This document shows, piece by piece, positions 862-18,071 of a stretch of DNA of 20,000 nucleotides; position 1 is the stretch's first letter; each line of letters begins with the position of its first letter. The DNA lies in the IMG/VR virus record IMGVR_UViG_3300013232_000195; one strand, written 5' to 3'. The position numbers and the translations under genes were made by a program. The notes under the pieces are model-generated. The model saw only the letters and a list, made by a program, of their open reading frames with translations. It did not search any database and had not been told where the DNA came from. Origin of the DNA: an uncultured virus (IMG/VR IMGVR_UViG_3300013232_000195). Lineage: Duplodnaviria > Heunggongvirae > Uroviricota > Caudoviricetes.

Positions 862-1254
862 CTAGGACCCGATCGCCACGCCTTCTCGCACCGCCCGCAG
901 CGTCATGGGTTGCCACCTAGACATGTCGGCGCTTTCCCCGATGCAGATGGGGTCGATATGGTCATTAACCTCGTTGGCGAACTGGTCGGCGGTCACGTCC
1001 ACGATGATCGTCCCAACGCGAACCCACCAATGGAACGGATACTTGGCGTCCTCGGGGTCGGCGTCTTCGTCGTACTGCGACATGTCGGGGTCGTCCAGAA
1101 CAAACCTCCCCCGAACAACGCGACACTTGCCACCGTCCTCGCGGATCATGTTGGCGATGTACTTGGACGCCTTAAGGCATCCGCCCTGGGGAGGATTGCC
1201 GTACTTCCGAACGATGAACTCACGCGCCTTCTTCGCAATCGCCTGTAGGTTCAT
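862..1254 (-). CDS. Transglutaminase-like/papain-fold Cys-His-Asp protein, 130 aa
   Basis: GGCLKAS...HWWVRVG.IIVDVTADQF pattern; SD AAGGGAG before ATG 1254; stop TAG supplied by the repeat (AIGS*). Confidence 0.65.
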   Translation of the reverse strand: MNLQAIAKKAREFIVRKYGNPPQGGCLKASKYIANMIREDGGKCRVVRGRFVLDDPDMSQYDEDADPEDAKYPFHWWVRVGTIIVDVTADQFANEVNDHIDPICIGESADMSRWQPMTLRAVREGVAIGS

Positions 1255-1290
1255 CGATCTTCTCCCTTCGCGCTCGCTTCTTGTCAACTC

Positions 1291-1321
1291 GCAGACTCCG
1301 CCGACGATGGGCGGAGTCTGC
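1291..1321. other. Perfect 12-bp intergenic hairpin
   Basis: GCAGACTCCGCC-N7-GGCGGAGTCTGC, no U-tract. Confidence 0.7.
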
Positions 1322-1352
1322 TGATTTACGACGACCAGAGATGCCCTTGAGT

Positions 1353-1826
1353 TTAGGGCTTCCGTATGGCTTCATCGACGGGCCTCCCGAACAACTCGTT
1401 CATGATGATCGCGTCGGGGTGATCCTTCTTGATCTTGGCCACGAACTCCGTGGTGTAGGGAACCTTCCACGTCCCGTACTGCCCCTTCTTGGCATTCGGC
1501 AACTTCCACACCAACTTGGTCTTACACCAACGCTTGATTGACTGGAGTTCCTCGTGGGATGTCACGATGTCGATCATGGCGGAGTCATAGGCCGTTCCCT
1601 CGCCCAGCGTGGGGAACTTCTTGCGCGAGTCAAAGAACGCCCGACTTTCGCGCAACTCGGCCTTAACCGCCGCAATGTCGATGTCCTTGTACCATTGCCA
1701 CTTCAAACATCCACCATTGGCTTCGTCAATGACGAACGCCACGGGCTTGCCGCTTTGCAGCAACTCCGCGTTGAACCCGTATCCTTCCATCCCACGGAAC
1801 GACTTGAACTTGCGAATGGTCAACAT
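1353..1826 (-). CDS. Hypothetical phage-type protein, 157 aa
   Basis: Repeat at 1855, SD, ATG 1826 (MLTIRKFKSFRGMEGYGF). Confidence 0.85.
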   Translation of the reverse strand: MLTIRKFKSFRGMEGYGFNAELLQSGKPVAFVIDEANGGCLKWQWYKDIDIAAVKAELRESRAFFDSRKKFPTLGEGTAYDSAMIDIVTSHEELQSIKRWCKTKLVWKLPNAKKGQYGTWKVPYTTEFVAKIKKDHPDAIIMNELFGRPVDEAIRKP

Positions 1827-1871
1827 TGTCCTTGTCCTCCCTTTCAAGGATAGGCTAGGACCCGATCGCCC

Positions 1872-2078
1872 CTACTGGAAGACGGTAGGTATTGCGGCTT
1901 GCACGCGGGCCTCCAACACCATGGCAGGGCCATTCGGACACCGCGACAATTGCTCCAGCATCCGTCTGTTGGCCCAATGTAACTCACCAATCTTCAACGT
2001 TGTGGGATCGGTAGTCAACTCGCGTTCAAGTTGATGATGGAGTTCCTGGAAGAGGATTTCGTGGTATTTGCGGGTCAC
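1872..2078 (-). CDS. Hypothetical protein, 68 aa
   Basis: GTG start overlaps the upstream TGA (GTGA), GGAGG SD; stop just before repeat 1855. Confidence 0.7.
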   Translation of the reverse strand: MTRKYHEILFQELHHQLERELTTDPTTLKIGELHWANRRMLEQLSRCPNGPAMVLEARVQAAIPTVFQ

Positions 2079-2344
2079 TTGGCCTCCTTGATGGAACAGA
2101 TGCTGAAGACGTATCCCCCGTCACGGTCGATCAAGCTGGCAGCATCCAACTTGTCCAACTCCTTGTCAGAGAAACCCGCCTCAGTGGACATCCCAGCGTA
2201 CTCGTTAAGCTCCAGGTAGGTCAATTCGCCGAAGGGCTTTGCACTTCCAGCCATGACCTTTTTGATGGCCTCGGCCTTGTCTTCAGCCTCTACGGCGTAC
2301 TTCTGGACGTGGGTTTCGTACTGCTCGACAATGAACTTAGGCAT
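2075..2344 (-). CDS. Hypothetical protein, DpnD/PcfM-like N-terminus, 89 aa
   Basis: MPKFIVEQYETHVQKYAVEAEDKAEAIKKV; repeat at 2366 and SD; resembles 8422..8607. Confidence 0.75.
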   Translation of the reverse strand: MPKFIVEQYETHVQKYAVEAEDKAEAIKKVMAGSAKPFGELTYLELNEYAGMSTEAGFSDKELDKLDAASLIDRDGGYVFSICSIKEAK

Positions 2345-2383
2345 TCTCTTGCCCTCCAAAATGGTCTGGGACCCAAATGGCCC

Positions 2384-2503
2384 TTAGATATATCCGAAGC
2401 ACCTCAAAATACACAGGACGGCAACCACGGCAAAGAGGAGTTCCTTAAGGTCCACGCTGAATGTAATCTTTTTTTCGATTCTCTTTACCTTGAAGATGAA
2501 CAT
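2384..2503 (-). CDS. 39-aa peptide with hydrophobic C-terminal half (possible membrane peptide)
   Basis: MFIFKVKRIEKKITFSVDLKELLFAVVAVLCILRCFGYI*; SD AGGAG overlaps the upstream TAG; stop next to repeat 2366. Confidence 0.6.
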   Translation of the reverse strand: MFIFKVKRIEKKITFSVDLKELLFAVVAVLCILRCFGYI

Positions 2504-2511
2504 GGCATCTC

Positions 2512-2865
2512 CTACCAGTTGAACTTAACCAGTTCCTCGCATTCCTCGCCGTCCTTGTCAAGGTTCACGGCAAAGAAGCGTTCCTTCATGGCTTGGTGAA
2601 TGAGCGTGATGAAAGCCTCACTCATGCCAGCAGCAAGGAGGTCCTTGCGGAGGTCGTCCAGCGTTCCCGCTTGCTGCGAGTCTTCCAGGGACGGGACGGA
2701 AACATAGAACCCGTACTCGTACTTGGACACCCTTAAGGGGAATGCGGGAATGGAGTTCTGGAAACACGGATCGCTGCCCGCTTCAGCATTCGCCTCAAGA
2801 ATCAGACAGTCATCACGGGTGATGTGGCACGTGGAAACATCGGCCATTTTACGTGCAGTCAGCAT
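2512..2865 (-). CDS. DUF5983-like protein, 117 aa
   Basis: DVSTCHIT...YGFYVSVP...GMSEAF...LDKDG...FNW pattern recalled for DUF5983; repeat at 2890 and SD. Confidence 0.7.
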   Translation of the reverse strand: MLTARKMADVSTCHITRDDCLILEANAEAGSDPCFQNSIPAFPLRVSKYEYGFYVSVPSLEDSQQAGTLDDLRKDLLAAGMSEAFITLIHQAMKERFFAVNLDKDGEECEELVKFNW

Positions 2866-2904
2866 TGTCTTTCCTCCCTTTGTCATGGACTGGGACCCGA
2901 TCGG

Positions 2905-3561
2905 TCATGTGTCTTTGTCCCCTCGCCGCGCCTTGGCGGCGTACTTGTCTCGTTGTTTTTCCATCTTCTTGGTTTCGGGATGGTTCGGATTCTGCTCAAC
3001 CCAAAGGTCGTGATAGGCTGTCCACCAGTTCCAGATTTCCTTCCCCTTTCGCCAAACGCTACGGATGCCATGAACACACCAGCAAATCTGCTCACCCTTT
3101 ATGTCAGCATTCGTGACGGCGCAGAAATCAGAGAGGTCGGATCCGAAGTCGTCCAAGCTTGAAATCTTGTACCTCTTGCGAGCAGACTGATACTTCTTCC
3201 CAGACATGCAGAACTTCTTGCTCTCATTGGAAACGATCTCGTCACCAACTCGGATGATCTGCTTGAGTCGGTAATCCAGAAGGTCAGTGAAATCAAGGTC
3301 TTCCAGAAACCGATCACTCTCCAGTAGCTTGGCTTCGCATTCGGCCAAGGTCAGCGGGCATTCGGATGCCGCCTTTTTCACGCTGGCTTGGAACTTTTCC
3401 TGGCTCTCGGACATGATGGCATTGAGGAAATCCGATCCAACCATGTGGTGGTCTCTGAAAACCTGGTAGAGTATAGCGACATGTACCTCGAGCTTGTCGG
3501 CGGCAGCTTGCCAACGCAACTTGCTCCGAATGCTTTTGGGAACGTATGGTTGAGTCTTCAT
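2905..3561 (-). CDS. Hypothetical protein, 218 aa
   Basis: Fills the interval between repeats 2890 and 3585. Confidence 0.8.
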   Translation of the reverse strand: MKTQPYVPKSIRSKLRWQAAADKLEVHVAILYQVFRDHHMVGSDFLNAIMSESQEKFQASVKKAASECPLTLAECEAKLLESDRFLEDLDFTDLLDYRLKQIIRVGDEIVSNESKKFCMSGKKYQSARKRYKISSLDDFGSDLSDFCAVTNADIKGEQICWCVHGIRSVWRKGKEIWNWWTAYHDLWVEQNPNHPETKKMEKQRDKYAAKARRGDKDT

Positions 3562-3595
3562 GTAGATCCCCTTTTATAAATGGTCTGGGACCCAA

Positions 3596-3865
3596 TTAGC
3601 CCCAGATCTCCTTGACCACCTTCGCAGGGGCTTCCATGAGTGTCGTGACAGTAATCTCGCCAAGCTGCTGGCCGTAGAAGTTGGGCTTCCCATTCCTTAA
3701 AGGGACCTTGATGACCTTACCCTTCTCAAGGACCACGGGGACGCAAGGATTGTATGCGTGTTGCCCGATCTCGAAAGCCTGCCCATCCCGGGCGACCAGG
3801 ACGTATCCTCGCAAGCCAAACCCATTGGTGTTGCTGGATGCCGCCACGACCTTGAACTCTTTCAT
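3596..3865 (-). CDS. Hypothetical protein, 89 aa
   Basis: Repeat at 3887, SD, ATG 3865 (MKEFKVVAASSNTNGFGL). Confidence 0.85.
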   Translation of the reverse strand: MKEFKVVAASSNTNGFGLRGYVLVARDGQAFEIGQHAYNPCVPVVLEKGKVIKVPLRNGKPNFYGQQLGEITVTTLMEAPAKVVKEIWG

Positions 3866-3897
3866 CGTTGTTCCTCCCCCAATGGTCTGGGACCCAA

Positions 3898-4134
3898 TCA
3901 ACCTCGGCAAGGGGCGAACTCGTCCGCCGCCTTGAGGTAGCCCTCAATCTCGTCGAAGCTACCAGACACAAGGATCGTCACTCCGTCGTTCTGGATGACC
4001 ATGCGGGGAGGTTCTCGACTCTCGTCCACCCTCAGAACCAAGTCGTTCTTGACTGCACGGGCCTTGAGACGTTCCCAACGGATGATCGTCCGTTCAAGGT
4101 CGGAGAGAGGCGGCAAAACGCTATTCTTGCTCAT
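3898..4134 (-). CDS. Hypothetical protein, 78 aa
   Basis: GGAGG SD; overlaps end of upstream gene; stop 2 nt from repeat 3887. Confidence 0.75.
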   Translation of the reverse strand: MSKNSVLPPLSDLERTIIRWERLKARAVKNDLVLRVDESREPPRMVIQNDGVTILVSGSFDEIEGYLKAADEFAPCRG

Positions 4135-4393
4135 CAATGTTCCTCCATTCACCAGCAGCCTTCCTCAACGCTTCGTTGCTTGGGTTGGGGCGTTCTTTCG
4201 ACAAAAACTTGTCTGCATCAAATTCTTCTTTGCCTTGCTTACGCGCCTCCATGATCTGCCGTTGACGGAATGCAACCTCGTTAGCCAGTCGGATGCATTC
4301 CATCCGCGCCTGGATCTCAGACTCCCTTGCGCGTATCCATGCATCGTGAACGTTCCTCAGACATTCCTCGTGCCAAGCCAACTTCTTTTTCAT
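4121..4393 (-). CDS. Hypothetical helical protein, 90 aa
   Basis: Repeat at 4415, SD, ATG 4393. Confidence 0.75.
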   Translation of the reverse strand: MKKKLAWHEECLRNVHDAWIRARESEIQARMECIRLANEVAFRQRQIMEARKQGKEEFDADKFLSKERPNPSNEALRKAAGEWRNIDEQE

Positions 4394-4430
4394 GGTCTGT
4401 CCTCCAAGGATCGTCTGGGACCCAAATGGA

Positions 4431-4802
4431 CTAGGCCAATTCGTCAATCTTCTTCTGCGCCCACTGTTGGGCGTCAATCCAGTAGTCCTTGCCGTTCTTG
4501 ACCACGACAGCCCCACCGCCGAACTCGTCCAGACGGGGCTTGCTGCAAGTATGCGCCCATGAGAAGGTGATGGCGTCCGTCAGCTTGAAACAGTTCTGGA
4601 ACTCACACAGAACATCGACGATCCGTTCCAAGTCCGCGTTCTCTTCGCTATTGAGCCAAACCGTTTTGTTGTCTTCCTGGATCTCAGCATCACAACTCGG
4701 GCCGAACTCACCGTCCTTGTTGAGTTCCTCAGCAAGCCATGTGGCTTGCTCCTCTGTGGCGCATTCAATCTGCGTACTGAACTGAGTGTAGTTGTTCGCC
4801 AT
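4431..4802 (-). CDS. Hypothetical protein, 123 aa
   Basis: MANNYTQFS...WAHTCSKPRLDEFGGGAVVV; bounded by repeats 4415 and 4824. Confidence 0.85.
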   Translation of the reverse strand: MANNYTQFSTQIECATEEQATWLAEELNKDGEFGPSCDAEIQEDNKTVWLNSEENADLERIVDVLCEFQNCFKLTDAITFSWAHTCSKPRLDEFGGGAVVVKNGKDYWIDAQQWAQKKIDELA

Positions 4803-4839
4803 TCAAATCTCCTTTGTCTTGGTCTGGGACCCGAACATC

Positions 4840-5655
4840 CTAGTACCGCATGGCACGTAGCCGCTTTGCCCGATCCTCCTTCGCCGTCCCCCATGCCTCC
4901 TTGGTCATGTCACCACCATACCCAGAAGCGCGGTCAGCATCGTCACGATACTCGTCCGATCCCCACAACCGCCCACCAGTCCCTCGCGTCCAGTTCACGT
5001 TGCGTAGCGCCCTCCAGAACACCCGCGCCATCGGTTCCTCATGCGCCCGATCAACCGCGTGATTGTTCTCGGACACCACCCACGTCACCACCCGCTTGTC
5101 GGCGTTAAGGTAGATGTTTCCCTCGTACCCCACGCGGAAGCTGACTGTGGCCTTGGTTGCCTTGGGGAAGTCCTTCTTCTTCGGCGCTTTTGGCCGCTTG
5201 CGGTCTGTCCACTGGTTGCCCCAGATCTTGCCTTCGGCGTCTACGCGACGGCCCATGCCGTTGTAGCATGTTCGGTTCTTCTCGGTCACCCACGCCTCAA
5301 CCCCAGTCGTGGGAGGGCAAGTATTGCCCATCACCACTTCCCTCTTGTCTTGCATGAGGGCATGGCGAACAACGTCAGACTCCAGCTTGAACCTCTCACA
5401 AAGAATCGACAAGAGCGTCCGAATTCCATCGGGACTGGTCGGCGTAAGGTTGCAGCAATGAGTCGCCAGCAACGCCTTGACCTCGGCCTTGGCGTTGTTC
5501 TTGAGAAGCCGATCCATCTCGGTCTTGACCTTCAGGGTGTCGGCGTACCGCTTCTCTTGCAACTCGTTGTAGCCAGCTATCACGGCATCCCGCAGCTTGC
5601 GGAACTCGGCGCAAGACAAATGCCATTCGCCCTTTTCCCATTCATTGCAACTCAT
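4840..5655 (-). CDS. Hypothetical protein, 271 aa (longest in window)
   Basis: Bounded by repeats 4824 and 5679; SD GGAGG. Confidence 0.85.
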   Translation of the reverse strand: MSCNEWEKGEWHLSCAEFRKLRDAVIAGYNELQEKRYADTLKVKTEMDRLLKNNAKAEVKALLATHCCNLTPTSPDGIRTLLSILCERFKLESDVVRHALMQDKREVVMGNTCPPTTGVEAWVTEKNRTCYNGMGRRVDAEGKIWGNQWTDRKRPKAPKKKDFPKATKATVSFRVGYEGNIYLNADKRVVTWVVSENNHAVDRAHEEPMARVFWRALRNVNWTRGTGGRLWGSDEYRDDADRASGYGGDMTKEAWGTAKEDRAKRLRAMRY

Positions 5656-5702
5656 GCTTGTCTTCCTCCAAAAATGGTCTGGGACCCGATCGTGTGGTTA
5701 TG

Positions 5703-5747
5703 GGGAGGCCCTGGCGCGGAGGGAGGGCCGCGCCAGGGCAGGGAGAA
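5703..5747. repeat. 45-bp GC-rich hairpin element, copy 1
   Basis: GGGAG-GCCCTGGCGCGG-N8-CCGCGCCAGGGC-AGGGAGAA; 44/45 identical to 9154-9198. Confidence 0.9.
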
Positions 5748-6347
5748 CTAGGCTAGGACTTCGATCTTGGTTGGTTCGCCTGGAGTCTGCGTGACCTTGA
5801 ACCGCAGACATTCCTTTTCGAACTCGGCATTCTGCTCGGCCAGCTTGTCGTGATACGCCCTAACCGCCTCGTTGTACTGGAGCTGCGCGTCTTGTCTGAG
5901 GATCTCGCCCTTGCGCAGCTTCTTGTTGAGACTGGTCTTGAGCGCCACAATCTCGCGGTCCCATCGGCAGCGTTCCCGCCACCGTCGCGCCGACGTATTG
6001 TCGGGGCAAGGCACCATTTCGAAGTAGCTGAGGGGGCATTTCGACTCACATGGCCCCATCGACTCTTCCATGTCCTTGTAACCCCAACCCTCGTCTCGCT
6101 TTGAGTACAGCATCATCGCCACAAAGATCCAACGGTGGGAAGCCAGCAAGTCGGGCGTTCCATCGGGCGCGGTAATGGTGTCTTCGAAGACCGCGTACAG
6201 CGTACCCTTGAAGGAACTGCCCTTGTAACACTTGGTCAGACACTTGCGGCTGACCTTGCTGCCGTCCTCACGTTCCCACTGCTGAGGCTGAACCAACTCC
6301 TCGATGACCGAACCGCGTCTTGAACCTGGAATGAATGTCCAACCCAT
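5748..6347 (-). CDS. DUF6927-like protein, 199 aa
   Basis: MGW start and WGYKDMEESMGP...CPLSY...WRERC motifs; repeat at 6373 and SD. Confidence 0.75.
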   Translation of the reverse strand: MGWTFIPGSRRGSVIEELVQPQQWEREDGSKVSRKCLTKCYKGSSFKGTLYAVFEDTITAPDGTPDLLASHRWIFVAMMLYSKRDEGWGYKDMEESMGPCESKCPLSYFEMVPCPDNTSARRWRERCRWDREIVALKTSLNKKLRKGEILRQDAQLQYNEAVRAYHDKLAEQNAEFEKECLRFKVTQTPGEPTKIEVLA

Positions 6348-6389
6348 TTTCGTATCCTCCCTTTCCCCTAGTCTGGGACCCGAATGGCT

Positions 6390-6758
6390 CTAGTCTTGTC
6401 CGCATGTCCTCAAGACTTCAAGGACGCGGCCCCAGACCAGCATGGTGTCTGGCTTCCAGTTGTACCATTTCTTGTCGTACGTCCACCAGTACCCGCCATG
6501 ATCCAAGTCGGGGTTTTTCGCCTTCTCGTTTCCCTTGAGACTTCTCGCCGTCAAGTCAATGTCGAAGGTCACAGTTGACGTGTTCTTGCGGTTCCACTCC
6601 AGACGCAAGTTGCTGTAACAGCCTTGCGTACCATTCGTGACGAGCGACACCATGACGCAGTTGTCGGGCTTGCCGAAGACGAAGTACTGTCCAGAACGAG
6701 CGCCATGCCCCATCAAAAGAGCGCCCAGTTCCTTTTCAATCATCTCGTTAATGGTCAT
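6390..6758 (-). CDS. Hypothetical protein, about 122 aa
   Basis: Repeat at 6784 and SD; ATG 6758 has better SD spacing than 6764. Confidence 0.8.
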   Translation of the reverse strand: MTINEMIEKELGALLMGHGARSGQYFVFGKPDNCVMVSLVTNGTQGCYSNLRLEWNRKNTSTVTFDIDLTARSLKGNEKAKNPDLDHGGYWWTYDKKWYNWKPDTMLVWGRVLEVLRTCGQD

Positions 6759-6794
6759 CTTCATGTCCTCCCTTTCCAATAGTCTGGGACCCAA

Positions 6795-7037
6795 CTAGGC
6801 GCGGATCATCGCACGGGCTTCCTCGTCCCGCGCTTGCGCCTCAGTGATGTAGTAGAAGTTCACCATCGGATCGGACCATGCGGGAGCGCCCAGGTCTTCC
6901 ACGATCCCCACCGTCCGCTTCTCGTTCAGCGCCTTGTTGCAGGCGAGAACCAAGGCGAAGTCAAGGGACGGGCAATGCCGTCCTTCCACCGAGTACTTGA
7001 CGCCTTCTCCCTTGTTCATCCGCAGGAACAATGACAT
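6795..7037 (-). CDS. Hypothetical protein, 80 aa
   Basis: SD GGGAGG overlaps the upstream TAG; stop 2 nt from repeat 6784. Confidence 0.8.
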   Translation of the reverse strand: MSLFLRMNKGEGVKYSVEGRHCPSLDFALVLACNKALNEKRTVGIVEDLGAPAWSDPMVNFYYITEAQARDEEARAMIRA

Positions 7038-7047
7038 GTGATCCTCC

Positions 7048-7347
7048 CTATCCGTAGACCGTTTTTCTGGCGGTCTTCCAAACCAACTTGGCTTTCTCAG
7101 TGTTTAGCCAGTCATTCCTCGCAAAGTAAGGTACCAGTTTGTACCTATGATCCCCAAAAACTAGGCTGGCATGATGTGGCCCGTTTCTGTCTTCAAACAT
7201 CATGACTATTAGGTCTGAAACTCCCTTAAGACGATAATGCCATTCTTTCCACTTCTCCATTGGCGGGAACTCGGAGAACTCAGCGATCTCCCGCATGATG
7301 CAACCAAGCAGCTTTACAAGCGCTGGCTCAAGTAATTCAGAGTCCAT
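7048..7347 (-). CDS. Hypothetical protein, 99 aa
   Basis: Repeat at 7367, SD, ATG 7347. Confidence 0.75.
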   Translation of the reverse strand: MDSELLEPALVKLLGCIMREIAEFSEFPPMEKWKEWHYRLKGVSDLIVMMFEDRNGPHHASLVFGDHRYKLVPYFARNDWLNTEKAKLVWKTARKTVYG

Positions 7348-7366
7348 TGATTCCTCCCACCATAAC

Positions 7367-7594
7367 CTAGGACCCGATCGACCTACGCTTCTGGTCCGCA
7401 ATCATGGCGTCCATCAAAAGGCGGAACTTGTGGATCATCTCACATATCGTTATTGCGCCAGCGTCCAGACCACTGTTGGCTTGCTTCTCAGCCGCCTTGA
7501 CAGCCGTCTGGAACATGACGAAATCCCCACCTCCGTCCTCGCCAGTGAACACATCGACAATGCGGTCAACGTCTGGTTTCAGTTTGATCTTCAT
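7367..7594 (-). CDS. Hypothetical protein, 75 aa
   Basis: ATGA overlap with upstream gene; ends IGS* inside the repeat. Confidence 0.75.
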   Translation of the reverse strand: MKIKLKPDVDRIVDVFTGEDGGGDFVMFQTAVKAAEKQANSGLDAGAITICEMIHKFRLLMDAMIADQKRRSIGS

Positions 7595-8001: not shown

Positions 8002-8050
8002 CTCCCTATCCTCCCTTTTGGCCCAGTCATAGCCTGGGACCCGATCGATG

Positions 8051-8308: not shown

Positions 8309-8321
8309 GGCATCCTCAAAT

Positions 8322-8396: not shown

Positions 8397-8421
8397 TCAA
8401 CATCCAACGTCTAGGACCCAA

Positions 8422-8607: not shown

Positions 8608-8609
8608 GG

Positions 8610-10641: not shown

Positions 10642-10670
10642 CGTCTGTCCTCCCCTTACCAGTCTGGGAC

Positions 10671-10703
10671 CCGAACGGGGCGGGAATGACCCGCCCCGTT
10701 CGG
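10671..10703. other. Perfect 14-bp hairpin overlapping a repeat core
   Basis: CCGAACGGGGCGGG-AATGA-CCCGCCCCGTTCGG. Confidence 0.75.
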
Positions 10704-10711
10704 AACTCCCC

Positions 10712-11248: not shown

Positions 11249-11340
11249 GGTCGTTTTCTCCCTTTGGGTTTCCCTTGCTCCCCTTCACACTCATAGACTG
11301 GGACCCGAATGCCCCCATCATCGCACGACCATTTGCCTGG

Positions 11341-11383
11341 AAAAGGCAAGGGGGAGGACCGTGGCCACGGCCTCCCCGCTTGC
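11341..11383 (-). terminator. Probable intrinsic terminator
   Basis: Long GC-rich stem GCAAG.GGGGAGG.CCGTG/CACGG.CCTCCCC.CTTGC followed by CTTTT on the - strand. Confidence 0.55.
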
Positions 11384-11467
11384 GAATCAAAGGTGTCTAC
11401 TCGGCTCAAAATTTATCTAAATGACTCGGCAGCTCTCCGAGTCGCGGGCGCAACCCGCCCGCGTCCC

Positions 11468-11614
11468 TCAACCCCATTCGTGGGTTTGCGCCCTCTTCGG
11501 GCAGGCGAAGGACTTGGCCGCTTCGGGCCGTTCATTCAGTGGGGTAGCTGTCCCCACCGTTTCACTCTTTTCCATAAGGAAGAGCAAAGATCGTATGACA
11601 CTGGCGAAGATCAT
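11468..11614 (-). CDS. Possible 48-aa peptide (or leader of a structured RNA)
   Basis: Repeat at 11650, AAAGGAGG SD, ATG 11614; the region is hairpin-rich, so coding is uncertain. Confidence 0.4.
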   Translation of the reverse strand: MIFASVIRSLLFLMEKSETVGTATPLNERPEAAKSFACPKRAQTHEWG

Positions 11615-11665
11615 CCACTCCTCCTTTCTTCGTATCCTCTTCCTTCTGGCTAGGACCCGAACGCC

Positions 11666-11938
11666 CTAGCCGATCTGAGTCACCTTACCACACTTCTGGC
11701 ACGTCCAGTGATGCTTGCTGCCAGGTTCGTCTGGGTGGTAGTTGCTTCCAGGCGATTCCTTGCAACGACACCACATGTTCTGGAAGGCGTGGTATTCCTT
11801 GAACTTCTGGATTGTAACGAGCTTCTCGCCGTTACACGTCACGCAAGTCAACTCGCCTTGCATGACCTTTCCGAACTCGTGTGAGGTGTAAGCAATCTTT
11901 CCCGTTCCCTTGCAATGAGGACAAGCGCGAGCTAGCAT
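11666..11938 (-). CDS. Cys-rich zinc-finger protein (CxxCxGxG-type repeats), 90 aa
   Basis: CPHCKGTG, CVTCNG, CRC, CQKCG; repeat at 11965 and SD. Confidence 0.85.
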   Translation of the reverse strand: MLARACPHCKGTGKIAYTSHEFGKVMQGELTCVTCNGEKLVTIQKFKEYHAFQNMWCRCKESPGSNYHPDEPGSKHHWTCQKCGKVTQIG

Positions 11939-11981
11939 TGTTTCGTTCCTCCCTTTACCTTGGACTGGGACCCGATCGCGC

Positions 11982-12227
11982 TTACCAATACTTGTGGCGT
12001 ATGCTCCAACCTTTCGCGTCAAGCCACGCCTTGAGGTTCTCCCACGTCCCCGCCTTGTCGGCGTTGTGGGTGTCGGCCCAAAACAACTTGTGGTAAAGAT
12101 CGTCAAACGTCAAGCCTTGAATCGTCCAGGTCGGCGGTTGTTCGCCCTTAAGATCAAGCGTCCCGTCTGGAAACCGACGCTCGATGACCAGCTTTTGGTT
12201 CGAAGTGTATGGCTGTCCCATGCCCAT
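11982..12227 (-). CDS. Hypothetical protein, 81 aa
   Basis: Repeat at 12254 and SD. Confidence 0.8.
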   Translation of the reverse strand: MGMGQPYTSNQKLVIERRFPDGTLDLKGEQPPTWTIQGLTFDDLYHKLFWADTHNADKAGTWENLKAWLDAKGWSIRHKYW

Positions 12228-12268
12228 TGAAATGTCCTCCCTTTTCCCATAGACTGGGACCCAATCGG

Positions 12269-12400
12269 TCAGCGGTTATCGCACTCCTTCTCCTGCTTCC
12301 TGCGTCGGCGGGCCTTGCGGTTCATGAAGGTCCGTTCATACTTTTTCAATCCAGTATGCGCGGGAGAAGGATTTTTTCGGTAAGGCTTTGTCTTAGCCAT
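12269..12400 (-). CDS. 43-aa basic peptide
   Basis: MAKTKPYRKNPSPAHTGLKKYERTFMNRKARRRRKQEKECDNR*; GAGG SD; overlaps the upstream stop. Confidence 0.6.
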   Translation of the reverse strand: MAKTKPYRKNPSPAHTGLKKYERTFMNRKARRRRKQEKECDNR

Positions 12401-12566
12401 TGCGTACCTCTGTCACGTGTTCAAGGTGAACCAATTCCTGAGGGACTATCGGCCACTCCCACTCAACGGGAGAAACAAAACCACGATCCTCGTTCCACTC
12501 GACAACGACGTACAACTCATCGCTTCCAACCAACTTAACTTTGTCACCTGCCACTATGGGTTTCAT
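12393..12566 (-). CDS. Small beta-rich (SH3/KOW-like) protein, 57 aa
   Basis: MKPIVAGDKVKLVGSDELYVVVEW; repeat at 12589 and SD. Confidence 0.75.
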   Translation of the reverse strand: MKPIVAGDKVKLVGSDELYVVVEWNEDRGFVSPVEWEWPIVPQELVHLEHVTEVRNG

Positions 12567-12605
12567 CGCTATTTCCTCCCACAATGGTCTGGGACCCGAA
12601 CGGGC

Positions 12606-12752
12606 CTACCGTTCGGGTCGTTGTTTCTTCTTTGCTCCCCGCGAGAACTGCCCGCCACACTGGCGGCATGTGTAATGTTTCAGGTTCCCCAACTGCCCGA
12701 GCGGGTGAAGGTCGCCGCCACACATCGGACACGCGCCGAACCTAATCCTCAT
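12606..12752 (-). CDS. 48-aa zinc-ribbon peptide
   Basis: MRIRFGACPMCGGDLHPLGQLGNLKHYTCRQCGGQFSRGAKKKQRPER*; absent from the ORF track because it is under 60 aa. Confidence 0.7.
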   Translation of the reverse strand: MRIRFGACPMCGGDLHPLGQLGNLKHYTCRQCGGQFSRGAKKKQRPER

Positions 12753-12951
12753 CGCTCACCCCTCGCATGATGCATTCCACCACCACACCCGCCCGCTGAA
12801 TCGTTCGCGGTGTCCGAGTGACGCCCAACTCCCGCGCAATCCCGTCCGCCTGCTTCTTGGCGTGGTAGTCACTCACCGCGTCAAAGCTAACGTTGGCGGT
12901 TGACGGATGCCCCACTTGCGCCCACTTGGCCACGTAATGGTTCTTTTTCAT
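12742..12951 (-). CDS. Hypothetical protein, 69 aa
   Basis: Repeat at 12978, SD, ATG 12951. Confidence 0.8.
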   Translation of the reverse strand: MKKNHYVAKWAQVGHPSTANVSFDAVSDYHAKKQADGIARELGVTRTPRTIQRAGVVVECIMRGVSDED

Positions 12952-13000
12952 TCGTTGGTTCCTCCCTTTCCTATAGTCTGGGACCCAATCGGTCAGGCCA

Positions 13001-13270
13001 CTACGGGCGCACAATCTGCCTTGCCGCTTCTTTGGCCAGACATACCGACGCGCAAAGAGAATTGTCTGGCGCGAACCGTACCAAGTCCGAATGCATTCTG
13101 TCCCACAAAATCAGCGGTATGTCATTGAAATTCTCATCGGTGGAACTGCGCAACGTCTTTTCCCCTATCGTATTGAGTACAAAACCGCGAACAGCAGTAT
13201 TCACGTATTGCCCGTAGTACTCGGAGTGAGTACATTTTCCGTTCAGGTAGTCGTCCCTTGTGTATCTCAT
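13001..13270 (-). CDS. Hypothetical phage-type protein, 89 aa
   Basis: MRYTRDDYLNGKCTHSEYYGQYV; repeat at 13297 and SD. Confidence 0.85.
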   Translation of the reverse strand: MRYTRDDYLNGKCTHSEYYGQYVNTAVRGFVLNTIGEKTLRSSTDENFNDIPLILWDRMHSDLVRFAPDNSLCASVCLAKEAARQIVRP

Positions 13271-13314
13271 TGTCGTGTTCCTCCCTTTCACATGGACAGG
13301 GACCCAATCGGCCC

Positions 13315-13605
13315 TTAACTGGCACCTATTTTACGAATTCGCCAGCCCCAAGTAGGTACAACAACAATCTCGTACCCTTCGGCAAGAATGGGTAATGGCC
13401 TGATTTCTCCATCGTACCACTTCCCATCATGTACGCATCCGCCGTTATATCGAATTTTGCCAAACGCGGGCGGGACACTGGCAGAACTTCCAAGGTAGCC
13501 CTTGAAGTGGAGCTTGCTCCCGAACGCATCCTTATGGACATGCTTCGCTTTTTTCTCGCAAGTTGCGACACCCCAGGTTTCTTGCGGAAACGTAAAAAAT
13601 GGCAT
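13315..13605 (-). CDS. Hypothetical protein, 96 aa
   Basis: Repeat at 13628, SD, ATG 13605. Confidence 0.8.
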   Translation of the reverse strand: MPFFTFPQETWGVATCEKKAKHVHKDAFGSKLHFKGYLGSSASVPPAFGKIRYNGGCVHDGKWYDGEIRPLPILAEGYEIVVVPTWGWRIRKIGAS

Positions 13606-13657
13606 CTCTGGTTCCTCCCTCAATAGACAAGGACCCAATCGGCCAGGTTCAATGGCA

Positions 13658-13897
13658 CTAAACTGGCGCGTTAGGATTGTCGGCGTATCGCTTGGCCAGC
13701 TTCTCCGCCTCAGACACGCAACGGCAATGCGGGTTGCCATAGCCATACTTGGCCATGAAGTCAGCGCCGCGCCGCGTCCTGAATGGCCCAATGACAGCCC
13801 CGTACAAATGACCATGACTGTCAAAGGTCGGCGTATCCGCGTTCCTGAACACTTCTCGCGTAAGCCCCGTCTTGAGCCCAACCCAAAGCTTAGTCAT
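13658..13897 (-). CDS. Hypothetical protein, 79 aa
   Basis: Repeat at 13923, SD, ATG 13897. Confidence 0.8.
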   Translation of the reverse strand: MTKLWVGLKTGLTREVFRNADTPTFDSHGHLYGAVIGPFRTRRGADFMAKYGYGNPHCRCVSEAEKLAKRYADNPNAPV

Positions 13898-13939
13898 CGG
13901 CGTATTTCCTCCCACCTCTGGACTGGGACCCGCTTGGCC

Positions 13940-14158
13940 CTACAACTCCTCACAGTATAGCACATCGCGAGCGGCGTTTGCAATCCGCTCGCAATCCTCC
14001 ATCGGAAGGCCAGTACGGTAACGAATCGTTTCGGCGTCGTTGCCGTCGTTCCCGTCCCTGAACGCCCGCAAAACGTCCCGCAACGTCGGCTTGTCCTGGC
14101 CCTCGAACATATGCTGATCGAGGACGGCCTGGATACGCGGCTGAATCTTGTTAGGCAT
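13940..14158 (-). CDS. Hypothetical protein, 72 aa
   Basis: Repeat at 14180, SD, ATG 14158. Confidence 0.8.
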   Translation of the reverse strand: MPNKIQPRIQAVLDQHMFEGQDKPTLRDVLRAFRDGNDGNDAETIRYRTGLPMEDCERIANAARDVLYCEEL

Positions 14159-14179
14159 CGCTGTTCCTCCCTCAATGGT

Positions 14180-14827
14180 CTAGGACCCAACTAGCTCCGC
14201 CTTTTCCATTTCCTCCCAGCATTCCCCGTTGTAGTCGCTGGGAATCTCTGGCTTGTCCACCGTCCCAAACTGCTTTGTCTTGCAACCGCAAGCCCATATC
14301 CGCCCTTCGGGGTCAACCACCATATCGGGACAAACGCAGCCCTTGTCCTCCGTCGCGCAATCCACGCCCCGCCCCACGGGATAAACCACCCGATCCGCCC
14401 CGTCCCGTATCCCTCGCATGTCGTTATTGTCCCGATCATAGCTGGGCTTGCGCTTGAACGCTTCCACGACCTTGCTATCAATCGGCTCATGGTATGAATC
14501 GGTGGACAAGTCCACCGACAACACGCCCCGCCGCGCCAATTCAGCCAGCGCTAGCGCGTCTTTCGTCCGCTTGCCGTTCGTGATGATTCCAGGCTGTCCC
14601 TCGCCGATGCTGGCAGAGGCGGACAAGGCCAGCCCCAGGAACTCCCAGAACTTGGGATGGACCGTCGGTTCGCCACCACCAAGGAAGGGCGCGGAGCCGT
14701 AGTTCTCACACAACGCCAGCGCCTTCTTGTAGGTTGACATGCCCATGTGATTCCCAGTCGTGGGGCCACACGAGTAACAGCAATGAGCGCATTCCATGTT
14801 ACAGCGTTCGGTGATCTGGATGTACAT
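14180..14827 (-). CDS. Radical SAM protein, 215 aa
   Basis: ITERCNMECAHCCYSC (CxxxCxxC), GGGEPTVHP, ITNG, and a C-terminal C..VDPEGRIWAC resembling a SPASM/Twitch remnant; stop supplied by the repeat (VGS*). Confidence 0.92.
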   Translation of the reverse strand: MYIQITERCNMECAHCCYSCGPTTGNHMGMSTYKKALALCENYGSAPFLGGGEPTVHPKFWEFLGLALSASASIGEGQPGIITNGKRTKDALALAELARRGVLSVDLSTDSYHEPIDSKVVEAFKRKPSYDRDNNDMRGIRDGADRVVYPVGRGVDCATEDKGCVCPDMVVDPEGRIWACGCKTKQFGTVDKPEIPSDYNGECWEEMEKAELVGS

Positions 14828-14891
14828 TGGCCGTCCTCCCTTTGTTCTCCCAAGGATAGCCTAGGACCCAATCGTCGTCAATACATCGCAC

Positions 14892-15374
14892 CTATAGAAT
14901 CGGTTCCTTGAGGGTGAACGCATACGGTCCCCTCGCAATGTCCATGCTGTCAAGCGCGGCAATCGCCTTGCGCAAGGCTGCCAATTCAACCTCAAGCGCC
15001 TCCGCTGCCTTGCGGGCTTCAAGCTGCTTCTCGGCAACACGGTGGCAATCGTCCTCAAGCCGAACCCGTTGGGCTTGCCGTAACACGTCGGGATTCTTCT
15101 TCGCGGCTTCCTTCCATGCCGCCATGAAGGCTTCCACAACCTTATCCTTGGCCGAACGGCTAACATCGTGTCCGCCAGAACGGCTGATATACGCCCCCGC
15201 GCCGTTGGCATTCTCCAAGCCCCATCCACCATGAGGTTGCTTGTAGATGTGTACGTTCGCGTTGTACTGAATCCCCCGAACCGTAACCAAACCCTCAAGG
15301 TACGCGTGGTTGTCACCCGTGATCGTCGCCCGTACCTCACCAACCGCCGTGGGAATCTTCATCGTAGGCCACAT
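14892..15374 (-). CDS. Hypothetical protein with C-terminal coiled coil, 160 aa
   Basis: Repeat at 15399, SD, ATG 15374. Confidence 0.8.
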   Translation of the reverse strand: MWPTMKIPTAVGEVRATITGDNHAYLEGLVTVRGIQYNANVHIYKQPHGGWGLENANGAGAYISRSGGHDVSRSAKDKVVEAFMAAWKEAAKKNPDVLRQAQRVRLEDDCHRVAEKQLEARKAAEALEVELAALRKAIAALDSMDIARGPYAFTLKEPIL

Positions 15375-15389
15375 GGTATGTCCTCCCTT

Positions 15390-15644
15390 TCACATGGTCT
15401 GGGACCCGATCGGCTCATACGCCACCGCCACGATGTCCTCAGCCAGAAGCGCAGCGTCCTCATCCTCGCTGTCCGCTAACCGACGAATGAGAACTTGCAA
15501 CTCATCGGGGTGAACCTCGGATGTAAGCCGATGCCCATTGTCGGAGAACGTGGACCGCGTGAACCCCTCAAGACGGGAATCGATGCCTTGGTTAACGGCC
15601 TCGATGACATTCTTGCGATCTTTCCCGACAAAACTCATCTTCAT
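15390..15644 (-). CDS. Hypothetical protein, 84 aa
   Basis: Repeat at 15667 and SD; reads through the next repeat and ends IGSQTM*. Confidence 0.75.
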   Translation of the reverse strand: MKMSFVGKDRKNVIEAVNQGIDSRLEGFTRSTFSDNGHRLTSEVHPDELQVLIRRLADSEDEDAALLAEDIVAVAYEPIGSQTM

Positions 15645-15657
15645 GCTTATCTCCCTT

Positions 15658-15843
15658 TCACATAGTCTGGGACCCAATCTTCCGCATCAGCTCCAGGGTT
15701 TCTTTTTTGCTCTTGGCCAAGGCACACTCACTATGAGTTGTGAATAGCTTGGTGTAGTCGCTGGCCTTCCCGCCATACTTTTTTGCCCGTTCAGAGGCAG
15801 ACGGCACAAGCGTTATGGGCTTCCCACAAATGGTGCATTTCAT
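15658..15843 (-). CDS. Small Cys/His protein, 61 aa
   Basis: MKCTICGKP...HSEC; repeat at 15870 and SD; ends IGSQTM*. Confidence 0.75.
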   Translation of the reverse strand: MKCTICGKPITLVPSASERAKKYGGKASDYTKLFTTHSECALAKSKKETLELMRKIGSQTM

Positions 15844-16035
15844 CGGCGACATCCTCCCTTTCCCATAGACAGGGACCCAATCCCGCCAAACATTGCACCA
15901 GGCGGAGGTTTTACCCTCCGCCTGGGAGCGATTGGAAAGGAGCCAGACGGCGGTAGATACGGGGCTGAAACGAAAAACCAAGGGAAGCCCTCACGACGCC
16001 TCATCCGCTAGGCCGTTTCTTTTCCCTCGGACACT

Positions 16036-16079
16036 GGGAGAGCAAGGCGCGGGACACCTCACCGCGCCTTGCTAGGGAG
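16036..16079. repeat. GC-rich hairpin element, diverged copy 3
   Basis: GGGAG-AGCAAGGCGCGG-N9-CCGCGCCTTGCT-AGGGAG; same flanks as 5703/9154 with compensatory stem changes. Confidence 0.8.
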
Positions 16080-16082
16080 TTC

Positions 16083-16472
16083 TTACCGCTCGTTGGGGAG
16101 CATGGCGACATAGGCGGGATTGATCCCGTCAACGCTGCCCAACTCAACCCAAACCCTCACTTCATCCATCGGAAAGTCCGTGAACTCCACCTCTTGCTTG
16201 ATCTTGATGTTCCCGTTCCCGTCGTCACACGTCACGACAGCCCCGCCCTTCGCGTTCCGCTTCAACTTCCAGAACTGCATGTCCCGCAAGTCCTTGTCCT
16301 TCTTGCACTTGGGCTGGTAGCTGGCGATGATGTCCAGAAACCAGAAACACTCCGCATTCTCCGCAAGGAACCGAACCCCGTCCGTCAACAGTAGCCCCGC
16401 GAGATAGCGGGTGTAGCCTTCCGTCCCGCTGAACCCCTCAAGCGCGGCATTCAAGCAATTCGCTGGCATCAT
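16083..16472 (-). CDS. DUF6876-like protein, 129 aa
   Basis: FSGTE...LLTDGVRFLAENAECFWFLDIIAS...QFWKL...CDDGNGN...FTDFP...MLPNE pattern; repeat at 16499 and SD. Confidence 0.8.
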   Translation of the reverse strand: MMPANCLNAALEGFSGTEGYTRYLAGLLLTDGVRFLAENAECFWFLDIIASYQPKCKKDKDLRDMQFWKLKRNAKGGAVVTCDDGNGNIKIKQEVEFTDFPMDEVRVWVELGSVDGINPAYVAMLPNER

Positions 16473-16526
16473 GTTCGTCGTCCTCCCTTTCACCTAGTCT
16501 GGGACCCAATCGGCCAGGCGCTCGCA

Positions 16527-16778
16527 CTAGCTCAGTATCTTCTTGATCTCTTCGGCGTGTTCCGTGATGAAGTCCGCCACGTCGTCCTTAGACATGCCGT
16601 TATAGCCGTCGGCGTCAACCAGCGCCCGCATGGCAATCTGCCGCTGATGCGCTTCGGCGTCTTCCTTGGTGTAGAACCGCCTACCGTCCGTCGTCGTCCA
16701 ACACGGAGCGACGTCTTCCACGATCCCACTGGTATACAAATGACTCGGAATCTTCCTGGTCGTCGGTCGCTCCCTCAT
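16527..16778 (-). CDS. Hypothetical protein, 83 aa
   Basis: Repeat at 16804, SD, ATG 16778. Confidence 0.8.
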   Translation of the reverse strand: MRERPTTRKIPSHLYTSGIVEDVAPCWTTTDGRRFYTKEDAEAHQRQIAMRALVDADGYNGMSKDDVADFITEHAEEIKKILS

Positions 16779-16858
16779 CGGCGTTTCCTCCCTTTCCCTT
16801 GGGCTGGGACCCAAACGCTTCGGCGGGGGTTCAATCCTCCCGCCGTCGGCGTTTGTCT

Positions 16859-17059
16859 CTAGCTCAACGCGGCCTCCAACAGCCGCCCCAGCTTGATGCC
16901 CTTCGACGCGGCCAGCGCGTTCTTGCGAGCGGCGTTTGCTGCCGCCTTCGCTGCCGCCATTGCCTGCGCCTTGCGCTCCGCCCGACGCCTCGCGGCCAAG
17001 GCGGACGCCTTGGCCTTCTCGGTCGCGGACACGGGAACGACGACTCCGAATCTCGGCAT
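16859..17059 (-). CDS. Ala/Lys/Arg-rich basic helical protein, 66 aa
   Basis: Repeat variant at 17084, SD, ATG 17059. Confidence 0.75.
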   Translation of the reverse strand: MPRFGVVVPVSATEKAKASALAARRRAERKAQAMAAAKAAANAARKNALAASKGIKLGRLLEAALS

Positions 17060-17148
17060 GGTTGTTCCTCCCTTTCACATCGGCTCGGACCCGATCGAGG
17101 CCAGGTAGTCCGCCAGGCGACACGACGGTGCGATAATCCCATGAAGTG

Positions 17149-17182
17149 AAAAAGCAAGGCGCGGCCACACGCCGCGCCTTGC
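17149..17182 (-). terminator. Intrinsic terminator
   Basis: GCAAGGCGCGGC-N5-GCCGCGCCTTGC followed by TTTTT on the - strand, 15 nt after the stop of 17198..17716; stem related to the hairpin family. Confidence 0.75.
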
Positions 17183-17197
17183 CGCTACCCTTGCCGC

Positions 17198-17716
17198 CTA
17201 GAGGCGGTGGGTTTCGCTATCCACCCGCAGTTCCTTAATGCTTTCCAGTTTGTAGGTGAGGAAGCGGATCGGCTCATCCGTCCCTTGGTTTTTGTACTCG
17301 CTGGGCTTTTCCAGCCACGGTTCCAGCGTTTCCTTCGCCACTTCCTCGCCGTTGTCCATCACGTACCGAACCTCGGACACGTTCAGCGAGCGGAAGCGGA
17401 GGTACATCTGGCCGTTCTGCTTGTGACGGCAGAAGGGCGTCAGCGTCCCGTCAGCGCGGATGACTGGCTCATGCCAACTTTCCCCCGCGAAGAAACAACT
17501 GGCGTCCTTGCCTTCCTTCGCCAACTGGCGGAGAACCGCCCCGTCATAGTGAAAGTTGATCTGTCCGCTGATCTTGGCGATCTTGCGGACGCGGCCAGCG
17601 TAGGGATTGCCGCGCTTGCGCATCTTCGGTTCCGTTTCGGCAGTGAAACCGATGAAGGTCGCGCCCCTCTGCCCTTCCAGCAACTCGACCACTCCCGCTT
17701 CAGCCACGTTAGCCAT
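17198..17716 (-). CDS. Phage-type hypothetical protein, about 172 aa
   Basis: Repeat at 17766; AAGGGAG SD; ATG 17716 (or 17722). Confidence 0.85.
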   Translation of the reverse strand: MANVAEAGVVELLEGQRGATFIGFTAETEPKMRKRGNPYAGRVRKIAKISGQINFHYDGAVLRQLAKEGKDASCFFAGESWHEPVIRADGTLTPFCRHKQNGQMYLRFRSLNVSEVRYVMDNGEEVAKETLEPWLEKPSEYKNQGTDEPIRFLTYKLESIKELRVDSETHRL

Positions 17717-17765
17717 TGTCATTCTCCCTTTTCCGTTTCCCTTGTCTCCCCTTCACATCAACAGC

Positions 17766-18071
17766 CTAGGACCCGACTGGCCGCATGACCTCACGGATGA
17801 ATCGCACGTTGTACTTCACGCTGCCGCAAGACTGGCAAGTGTACGTCTGTCCTTTGCCAACGCCTTCCACCGTATGCCTTGTGGACATGCGGCGACAATT
17901 GCAGTAACGGTTCTCGGCAGACTCACGAGCCTCCGTTATCGCCTCCTCGGCAATTTCTTCCTCGTACTCGGCGCGGATTTCGCGGATGTCCTTAAACCGC
18001 GTGTTGCGCCCTCGCGTGGCATGAGCCATTCCCGCAGCGCGTGTTTTCGCGTTCTCTGCATGTCTGTTCAT
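17766..18071 (-). CDS. Hypothetical protein with C-terminal zinc ribbon, 101 aa
   Basis: CNC...CQSCG; repeat at 18095 and SD; ends VGS* inside the repeat. Confidence 0.8.
   Translation of the reverse strand: MNRHAENAKTRAAGMAHATRGRNTRFKDIREIRAEYEEEIAEEAITEARESAENRYCNCRRMSTRHTVEGVGKGQTYTCQSCGSVKYNVRFIREVMRPVGS

Follow-up and report, generated by a model that had tools for sequence, protein, structure and literature searches.

The attC sites of integrons are imperfect palindromes of 57–141 nt that fold, carry GTTRRRY core sites, belong to the 3′ end of the upstream gene and need IntI. The promoters read by single-subunit phage RNA polymerases of the T7 type are contiguous sequences of about 18–23 bp, with about 2–17 copies per phage. 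Among phages, the promoter-early stem-loop (PeSL) cassettes of the T4-like phages RB49/phi1, PST and nt-1 (Arbiol et al. 2010, PMC2839356; Comeau et al. 2014, PMC4122927) are AT-rich σ70-like early promoters with a built-in G/C stem-loop; some crossovers at PeSLs lie in the AT-rich part, some in the loop and some between the −10 box and the Shine–Dalgarno sequence (SD) (PMC2839356), and the authors themselves liken the system to integrons. The start-associated sequences (SAS/ESAS) of Cluster K mycobacteriophages (Pope et al. 2011, PMC3203893) are 13 bp long, have the SD inside and lie 3–7 bp from the start codon, with roughly 93 sites over six genomes; their function is given there as unknown. 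Here we describe a stretch of 20,000 nt, referred to as the window, from the uncultured virus IMGVR_UViG_3300013232_000195 (Caudoviricetes), in which a repeated unit of about 40 nt stands between small genes, and in which six of these genes take their last 2–6 residues and their stop codon from the unit.

The window holds about 58 small genes, located on the minus strand from 1 to about 18100 and on the plus strand from 18156. The core of the unit, GGGTCCTAG, is matched 43 times with at most one mismatch, compared with 3.7 ± 2.1 matches in shuffled sequences, none of 200 shuffles reaching 43; the pattern GGGTCC[CTG][AT]G yields 45 copies, 39 on the minus strand (537–18095) and six on the plus strand (18156–19762). 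All 45 have the orientation of their genes, at about one unit per 440 nt or 2.25 copies per kb. In the minus-strand array (39 units, 537–18103) each unit is placed between the stop codon of one gene and the SD and ATG of the next, and a divergent array of six units occupies 18156–19770 of the plus strand. The head units of the two arrays, 18095–18103 (−) and 18156–18164 (+), stand back to back with 52 nt between their cores.

In short, the unit reads YGATY-GGGTCCYAG-NCNAT, then a strong SD, then ATG. The consensus from position counts over the 45 copies is GGCC(G/A)(A/T)T(Y) GGGTCC(Y)AG NCNAT, about 4 nt, AAAGGGAGGA, about 6 nt, ATG. The first block corresponds to positions −8 to −1, and GGGTCC is invariant; position +6 is C in 32 copies, T in 11 and G in two, and is followed by A and G, after which come N, C at +10 (44/45), N, A and T. 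Where conservation is partial, the changes are transitions (Y at −1, +6 and +11; R at −4). The purine run AAAGGGAGGA lies at +18 to +25, and the distance from core to ATG is 19–49 nt, mostly 21–26 nt. Further upstream, a GTGCGA(T) box is present 20–22 nt 5′ of the cores at 870, 6792, 11306, 12262, 14869, 16507 and 18103 (seven units). Of the ten sense-strand copies of GTGCGA, eight lie between −36 and −11 relative to a core (0.5 expected), and the most enriched 5-mers upstream of the units are GTGCG and GTGCC. A copy at −33 of unit 17766 is coding sequence kept in homologues and was left out of this count. With similar boxes, GTGCC or GTGCA, in other units, the layout is one of two parts, the box sometimes lying within the upstream coding sequence. 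The units at 11249–11306 and 17723–17774 (−) have similar long purine-rich leaders (GTGAAGGGGAG.CAAGGGAAAC..AAAGGGAGAA), with 49 nt from core to ATG and no predicted fold, and precede two unrelated genes of 174–178 aa.

The last 2–6 residues and the stop codon of all six genes in question, which are located on the minus strand, come from the unit. Four of them end at the TAG of a unit that has T at +6. The 130-aa gene 862–1254 ends ...RAVREGVAIGS*, its stop being the TAG of unit 862–870. One relative (P0001) keeps AIGS, another (P0002) reads AIGSW and nine further residues, so that its core has TGG where the window has TAG, and two more distant ones, P0003 (58% identity) and P0004 (45%), diverge after RWQP. 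The 75-aa gene 7367–7594 ends ...KRRSIGS* at the TAG of unit 7367–7375; of its relatives, P0006 ends KRKSIGS, P0008 ends KRRYDG, and P0007 continues for 38 aa past KLKS. The 215-aa radical SAM gene 14180–14827 ends ...CWEEMEKAELVGS (EKAELVGS) at the TAG of unit 14180–14188, with an out-of-frame TAG at the usual −5 stop position. Its homologues in Vibrio phage (42–45% identity, 249 and 253 aa) and in two related metagenome contigs discussed below, L003 and L006 (about 60%), all share ...CWE.M.. and have tails of their own, CGHPLQVSDRLY, KERREEEREVACA and MEEKANV. The 101-aa zinc-ribbon-like gene 17766–18071 ends ...VRFIREVMRPVGS (PVGS) at the TAG of unit 17766–17774; RPVGS is kept in four sequences at 85–100% identity, including P0011, which is the window's own 101-aa protein called from a later start, while the unit-encoded tail is lacking in P0013, which ends ...VRFIRSVMA*, and in the L003 homologue, whose last residues are KYR.

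The other two genes read through the core to a TGA. The 84-aa gene 15390–15644 passes through the CAG-type unit 15399–15407 and ends ...AYEPIGSQTM*; its L006 homologue (71% identity) ends ...AFGPFEE*, the DNA similarity ceasing 5 nt 5′ of the core. The 61-aa gene 15658–15843 passes through unit 15667–15675 and ends ...ELMRKIGSQTM*, and its homologues from large E. coli and Pseudomonas phages (62–67% identity) align up to ELMR(K/R)(I/L), after which they read VAESKAKKVLA, NAQANL or SKK where the window has GSQTM*. All six open reading frames (ORFs) can be considered real genes because each has an SD and ATG or an ATGA overlap, as well as homologues. The initial annotation had claimed exactly this set, four ORFs ending at the TAG and two ending IGSQTM*, and the homologues bear it out: in 6/6 alignments similarity is lost where the unit-encoded residues begin, outside the closest relatives, and for none of the six genes do homologues elsewhere carry the same C-terminus. 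The six genes are short of 1–12 native residues or more.

Some further observations concern these genes. The 38-residue in-frame tail of P0007, which stands in place of the unit-encoded end, is cysteine-rich and zinc-ribbon-like, and judging from the aligned sequences P0007 may be a gene fusion at the same junction as the end of the 75-aa gene. Gene 862–1254 has no unit of its own; ahead of it, in 1255–1352 (−), come a hairpin with a perfect stem of 12 bp, CAGACTCCGCC...GGCGGAGTCTG, and an SD of the usual kind, and the start of the gene is uncertain, as the relatives' proteins begin nine residues further upstream. The 61-aa CxxC protein belongs to phrog_8738, its aligned relatives coming from E. 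coli and Pseudomonas phages of 112–356 kb, and a tblastn search with it matched 124 phage records, including Klebsiella phages of about 350 kb; by these matches it is a very widely shared small phage gene.

The ends of the remaining genes lie close to the unit as well. By our own gene models, on which these counts rest, the upstream stop is 2–9 nt 5′ of the core in 24/45 units (seven at 2 nt, two at 6, five at 7, eight at 8 and two at 9), in agreement with the earlier remark that many genes stop at this distance; in six it is inside the unit, in five at 12–22 nt and in eight at 39–204 nt, and two units head the divergent arrays. Such distances are what pure compaction would give, that is, read-ins that arose in place by point mutations or small indels, in which the unit did not act as a junction. 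Since unit-less gene pairs likewise overlap or are at most 10 nt apart, general compaction, which had been named as an alternative from the start, explains much of the short stop-to-core distances. Compaction is also consistent with the out-of-frame stop that three read-in units retain at the usual position (TAG at −5 in 14188, TAG at −11 in 7375, TGA at −10 in 15407), as a late frameshift would leave, and with the variable length of the native tails in these families. Against it stand the relatives of the 75-aa protein at about 80% identity, which continue in three ways after the same residue (IGS*, YDG* and the 38-aa extension), the L006 homologue of 15390–15644, which is followed by a different gene without a unit, and the module exchange at units that is directly seen in the related contigs. 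As the whole explanation, compaction is therefore regarded as improbable.

The read-ins are confined to one frame. All six genes enter the unit in frame 0, the sole frame in which the unit soon gives a stop, either TAG at +6 (four genes, the T variant) or TGA at +15 (two genes); were the frame free, the chance of 6/6 in one frame would be (1/3)^6 = 0.0014 by our own arithmetic. The TAG variant is found in four of the six read-in units compared with 6/39 others (Fisher one-sided p = 0.016). The restriction to frame 0 and the enrichment of the T variant suggest that events survive selection when the unit terminates the protein after no more than 2–6 residues. The truncation points range from about −1 to about −12 relative to the core; that of 862–1254 is less clear and possibly further upstream.

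The same architecture was found by a pattern scan in four metagenome contigs: Ga0180438_10001403 (L003/L010), L006, L026 and L013. The other pattern matches, 16/16 loci in genome_contigs and 19/24 in metagenome_contigs, represent one conserved protein-coding stretch or single chance matches; lacking TY 5′ of the core and ATG 3′ of it, they were not accepted as relatives of the unit. In viral_contigs the unit pattern has no loci, and a looser gapped pattern has at least 120, none of the matches listed having more than one unit, which does not establish that the unit is missing from this collection. A blastn comparison of 8 kb of the window with phage records gave no match, and a protein-seeded search of viral_contigs found no relatives of gene 17198–17722. 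L013 is colinear with the window, with 85% identity over 1.2 kb. In the 34 units of L003, GATCGGGTCC and the C at +10 are invariant, the SD spacing is the same as in the window (+18 to +25), and the divergence point again consists of back-to-back head units, at 3087 (−) and 3135 (+). Of these units, 22/34 have TGA at −5, which in 13 actually terminates an ORF of 44 codons or longer, and four more ORFs read into the unit; since L003 units show it too, the overlap with gene ends is a property of the whole unit family.

Comparison with these contigs shows that genes change places with the unit at their boundary. In L006 the radical SAM gene is followed by the homologue of 15390–15644 and then by the homologues of 13001–13270 and 12742–12951, while in the window the same genes stand in another order with four other genes between them (G-H-radical SAM-J-K-L-M-N, against radical SAM-G-M-N in L006). 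In five of six pairwise alignments the similarity starts at the unit and runs through the leader and the gene, the sequences upstream of about −6 being unrelated, so the unit travels with the downstream gene. These five clean pairs are genes 13001–13270, 15390–15644, 7591–8001 and the radical SAM gene against L006 and against L003; the sixth, gene 17198–17722 against L003, gave no clean alignment around the unit.

Joins were also sought by comparing contigs of another sample with the window (run X3), and two clean ones were obtained, in two contigs, each of which is without exactly one gene, in register between neighbouring units. The first (13291>13623) skips 331 nt, 13292–13622 (−), that is, a leader, gene 13315–13605 and the 5′ half of the next unit, joining +13 of one unit to +14 of the next; the shorter side of this join has 100 nt, and 2 letters could belong to either side. 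The second (19202>19580) skips 377 nt, 19203–19579 (+), containing gene 19210–19542, and joins the SD end of unit 19176 to the base just 5′ of ATG 19581, 3 other letters standing between them; here the shorter side measures 95 nt. Two further joins, 555>2565 and 10940>11033, had only 21 letters on one side and were ignored. Because the two clean joins are in register but at different places in the unit, they point to homologous recombination between repeats.

These data bear on the integron-like interpretation of the initial annotation, according to which incoming genes may be joined at a fixed point just 5′ of the core, much as at attC; in its full form, the motif would be a dedicated site for a site-specific recombinase. 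The array does resemble a cassette array in being one-directional, in consisting of unrelated small genes with one repeat between them, in having ORF ends that overlap the repeat and proteins whose similarity to homologues ends there, and in gaining or losing modules exactly between units. The junction role of the motif is to that extent upheld by the reordered shared genes, with similarity starting at the unit, and by the two unit-to-unit joins, while its integron-like form is only partly supported. A fixed joining point is contradicted by joins at +13/+14 and at the SD and by the spread of the truncation points. Nor does the unit look like attC. It has no imperfect inverted repeats (R″-L″/L′-R′) folding as a hairpin: RNAalifold on 38 of the 45 units, aligned, found 2 pairs at −0.06 kcal/mol without compensatory change, and hence no conserved fold. 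Two candidate structures around the core, a hairpin GGTC-CCA-GACC, with variable positions that do not covary by eye, and a 5-bp stem GATTG/CAGTC, likewise without covariation by eye, were rejected, the RNAalifold result being null for both. GTTRRRY fits positions −3 to +3 (as GTTGGGT) in only 4/45 copies (6784, 9595, 14180 and 18504), the rest having ATT, ATC or TTC before GGGT. Moreover, attC moves with the upstream gene, whereas the unit stays with the downstream one. The unit also has the SD as part of it and stands at the head of two divergent arrays and in front of a tRNA gene. No integrase family was recognized among 52 proteins of the window and 20 of L003, although most of the element, whose contig may be about 197 kb long, lies outside these approximately 41 kb. 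An integron-like platform is thus very unlikely.

What the unit does for the gene that it precedes is suggested by its position. Unit 8411–8419 (−) has no SD, and 14 nt after it starts a tRNA-Cys gene, 8322–8396 (ARAGORN; Rfam 40.3 bits), so the unit is not tied to translation. An intrinsic-terminator-like hairpin with a U run, 17153–17183 (−), which is strong, lies about 60 nt upstream of unit 17084–17092. Overall, a strong hairpin is present 5′ of the unit in 8/8 spacers of at least 39 nt, one of them with a U run, and in none of the other 37 units. A scan with the σ70-like consensus gave 4 sites in 20 kb, compared with 7.4 expected, none of them at the array heads; one, 14881–14853 (−), overlaps unit 14861–14869, with the −35-like element 5′ of the core and the −10-like element in the leader. 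Likenesses to σ54- and ECF-type promoters were too poor to be claimed. Genes without a unit are tightly coupled to the preceding gene, as in operons of two to three genes. A reading as an expression signal, which would define the 5′ ends of transcripts, is favoured because the unit heads both arrays, precedes a tRNA gene and follows hairpins, σ70 sites are scarce, and unit-less genes are coupled; the lack of a conserved fold and the placing of the GTGCGA box speak for it too. Judged from the sequence, the unit is most likely the promoter and short leader of each module.

The main rival to a promoter is a processing or loading site in the RNA. The unit would then be an intercistronic element, cleaved by an endoribonuclease or serving ribosome loading or translational coupling in the manner of SAS, with the read-ins and the recombination as by-products of compaction and repetition. 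Its strictly sense orientation and its fixed spacing to the SD (+18 to +25 in the window and in L003) suit such a role, as do the variation of semi-conserved positions by transitions, the hairpins without a U run, which make up most of those upstream and could protect processed 3′ ends, and the upstream stop that is often inside the unit (TGA at −5 in L003), as is also noted in the account of SAS (PMC3203893). It is harder to reconcile with the heads of the divergent arrays, which have no cistron before them and leave a mere 52 nt to any other promoters, with the unit behind a strong terminator with a U run, with the SD-less unit before the tRNA, and with the failure to find in 20 kb any σ70-like promoter able to feed long polycistronic transcripts. 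In addition, the unit has no fold suited to cleavage of the RNase III or Cas6 type, and unit-less genes use an ordinary SD, which means that the unit is not needed for initiation. A role at the RNA level is consequently the less probable of the two, yet a more serious candidate than compaction or an integron-like platform.

The spacers contain some other elements. The hairpins at 5707–5755 and 9158–9194 (−) and at L003 10843–10893 (86–89% identity) share the same 12-bp GC-rich stem, CCCTGGCGCGG...CCGCGCCAGGG, fold at −28 to −32 kcal/mol with z about −5, have no U run and lie each shortly 5′ of a unit; they form a second repeat family. The 136-nt spacer 19040–19175 (+), between gene 18835–19041 and unit 19176, has a predicted closed three-arm fold of −63.6 kcal/mol (z −4.56; 0/200 shuffles fold as well) and no Rfam match at gathering score, and by this prediction it may be a small structured RNA. 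Within the 161-nt spacer after gene 11468–11614, the non-coding stretch 11443–11502 (−), which adjoins strong hairpins, is kept in two relatives, L003 8401–8429 (96.6% over 29 nt) and L026 123–180 (80% over 59 nt). In L003, the region 1181–1328 (−) has a unit without SD and, after it, a segment that includes a T arm like that of a tRNA, GCGGGTTCGATTCCCGC; ARAGORN found no tRNA there, and Rfam gave a weak tRNA-Sec match (20.8 bits, E 0.093), below gathering.

Taken together, the observations are best accommodated by a joint reading, to which we assign a probability of roughly 65%: the unit is a per-gene expression signal and a site of module exchange, and the read-ins come from imprecise events kept in frame 0. 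The same unit of about 40 nt opens nearly all genes or tightly coupled clusters of two to three genes. It is laid out as an optional GTGC(G/C)A some 21 nt upstream, YGATY-GGGTCCYAG-NCNAT, a strong SD and ATG, and would be read as a linear sequence, not as a fold, presumably by a transcription machinery other than that of σ70. Because it recurs about every 440 nt, the unit serves as a recombination site as well, at which modules are added, removed and reordered, as the related contigs show. With genes packed against the unit, an imprecise join or a small deletion may remove a gene's own stop, so that translation enters the unit and 2–6 unit-encoded residues replace a variable native tail; the read-ins need an imprecise join, a small deletion or a frameshift, because in-register crossovers keep both genes whole. 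The borrowing of gene ends thus most likely arises, as far as can be judged from the compared sequences, because the unit also serves for module swaps.

Several points weigh against this joint reading. For the six genes a small deletion or frameshift in place is indistinguishable from imprecise recombination, and the three out-of-frame stops fit either. Both joins are precise and truncate no gene, and hence show module exchange, not the origin of the read-ins; the comparison as a whole rests on four related contigs and two joins, and with stops 2–9 nt from the core the breakpoints are not finely resolvable. A role at the RNA level fits most of the same facts. A U run is found in just one of the hairpins, so that the rest may serve to stabilise RNA ends without necessarily being terminators. 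Finally, no genes for an RNA polymerase, a σ factor or a recombinase were seen in the 20-kb window and 21 kb of L003.

The unit system works like the PeSL cassettes but does not have their defining promoter features, nor a stem-loop within the unit itself. Both are dense in regions of small ORFan genes. As described for PeSLs, the unit is an intergenic composite bounded by the stop of the gene before it on one side and by the SD and ATG on the other (45 units in 20 kb, 30/45 with a stop at most 9 nt from the core or inside), and indels and replacements are bounded by the elements, with crossovers inside them, as seen in the two joins and in the order of L006, which breaks at units. On the other hand, the σ70-like −35 and −10 elements and the AT-rich upstream region are absent, the conserved part of the unit being GC-rich (YGATYGGGTCCYAG), and the unit itself has no fold, hairpins being present only in the eight long spacers, upstream of it. 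Read-in with unit-encoded C-termini is not among the PeSL features described in the accounts cited (PMC2839356, PMC4122927), and no link of the window to T4-like phages was found. With SAS the unit shares the character of a short, asymmetric repeat in one orientation upstream of unrelated gene families, with the upstream stop sometimes inside it. As described, however, SAS is a 13-bp sequence of the GGGATAGGAGCCC type that includes the SD, whereas the core GGGTCCYAG is separate from the SD and 19–49 nt from the ATG; the window moreover has 45 copies in 20 kb, one of them preceding a tRNA gene.

A certain likeness to T7-type promoters is given by the contiguous block of about 19 nt (−5 to +13), followed by purine-rich GGAAAGGGAGGA and without σ70 likeness. 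It differs in that there is nearly one unit per gene, only about 11 positions are invariant in L003, and no polymerase gene was seen in the DNA examined. We can only tentatively suggest, on sequence grounds, that the unit might represent an undescribed class of per-gene promoter and leader of uncultured phages of about 200 kb, read by a phage-specified polymerase or specificity factor and doubling as a substrate for cassette exchange.

The window belongs to a large uncultured phage-like element, of which it represents a small-gene ("hyperplastic") region. The phage-like nature of the element is based on PHROGs matches (11/52 proteins), the phage relatives of the 61-aa protein, the tRNA, and the contig of the 75-aa protein, since the protein cluster that includes the 75-aa product of the window itself is recorded from a contig of 196,989 bp. 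Pfam families were matched at E ≤ 0.01 by 9/52 proteins, only 3 of them above the curated cut-off. Proteins with DUF6876 (16083–16472, E 6.5e-35) and DUF5983 (2512–2865, E 2e-12), both encoded on the minus strand, are present among the ORFans; homologues of the former occur in 107 plasmid records and are common on plasmids of cyanobacteria, Acetobacter and Piscirickettsia.

The array provides a second, sequence-unrelated case of repeated regulatory cassettes that shuffle small phage genes, documented so far mainly for T4-like phages. In a lineage with almost all genes of unknown function, the motif marks both gene starts and module boundaries. The read-in is a modest consequence of the unit architecture; still, it offers one concrete route by which module shuffling creates new protein C-termini. 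Should the unit prove to be a promoter, transcription would be laid out with unusual regularity, one copy per gene and 2.25 per kb, and the unit would be a ready-made natural standard expression part. If the tentatively suggested promoter class proves true, phages would have a counterpart of integron cassettes that works without an integrase, the signal of each module supplying a fail-safe stop for the gene in front.

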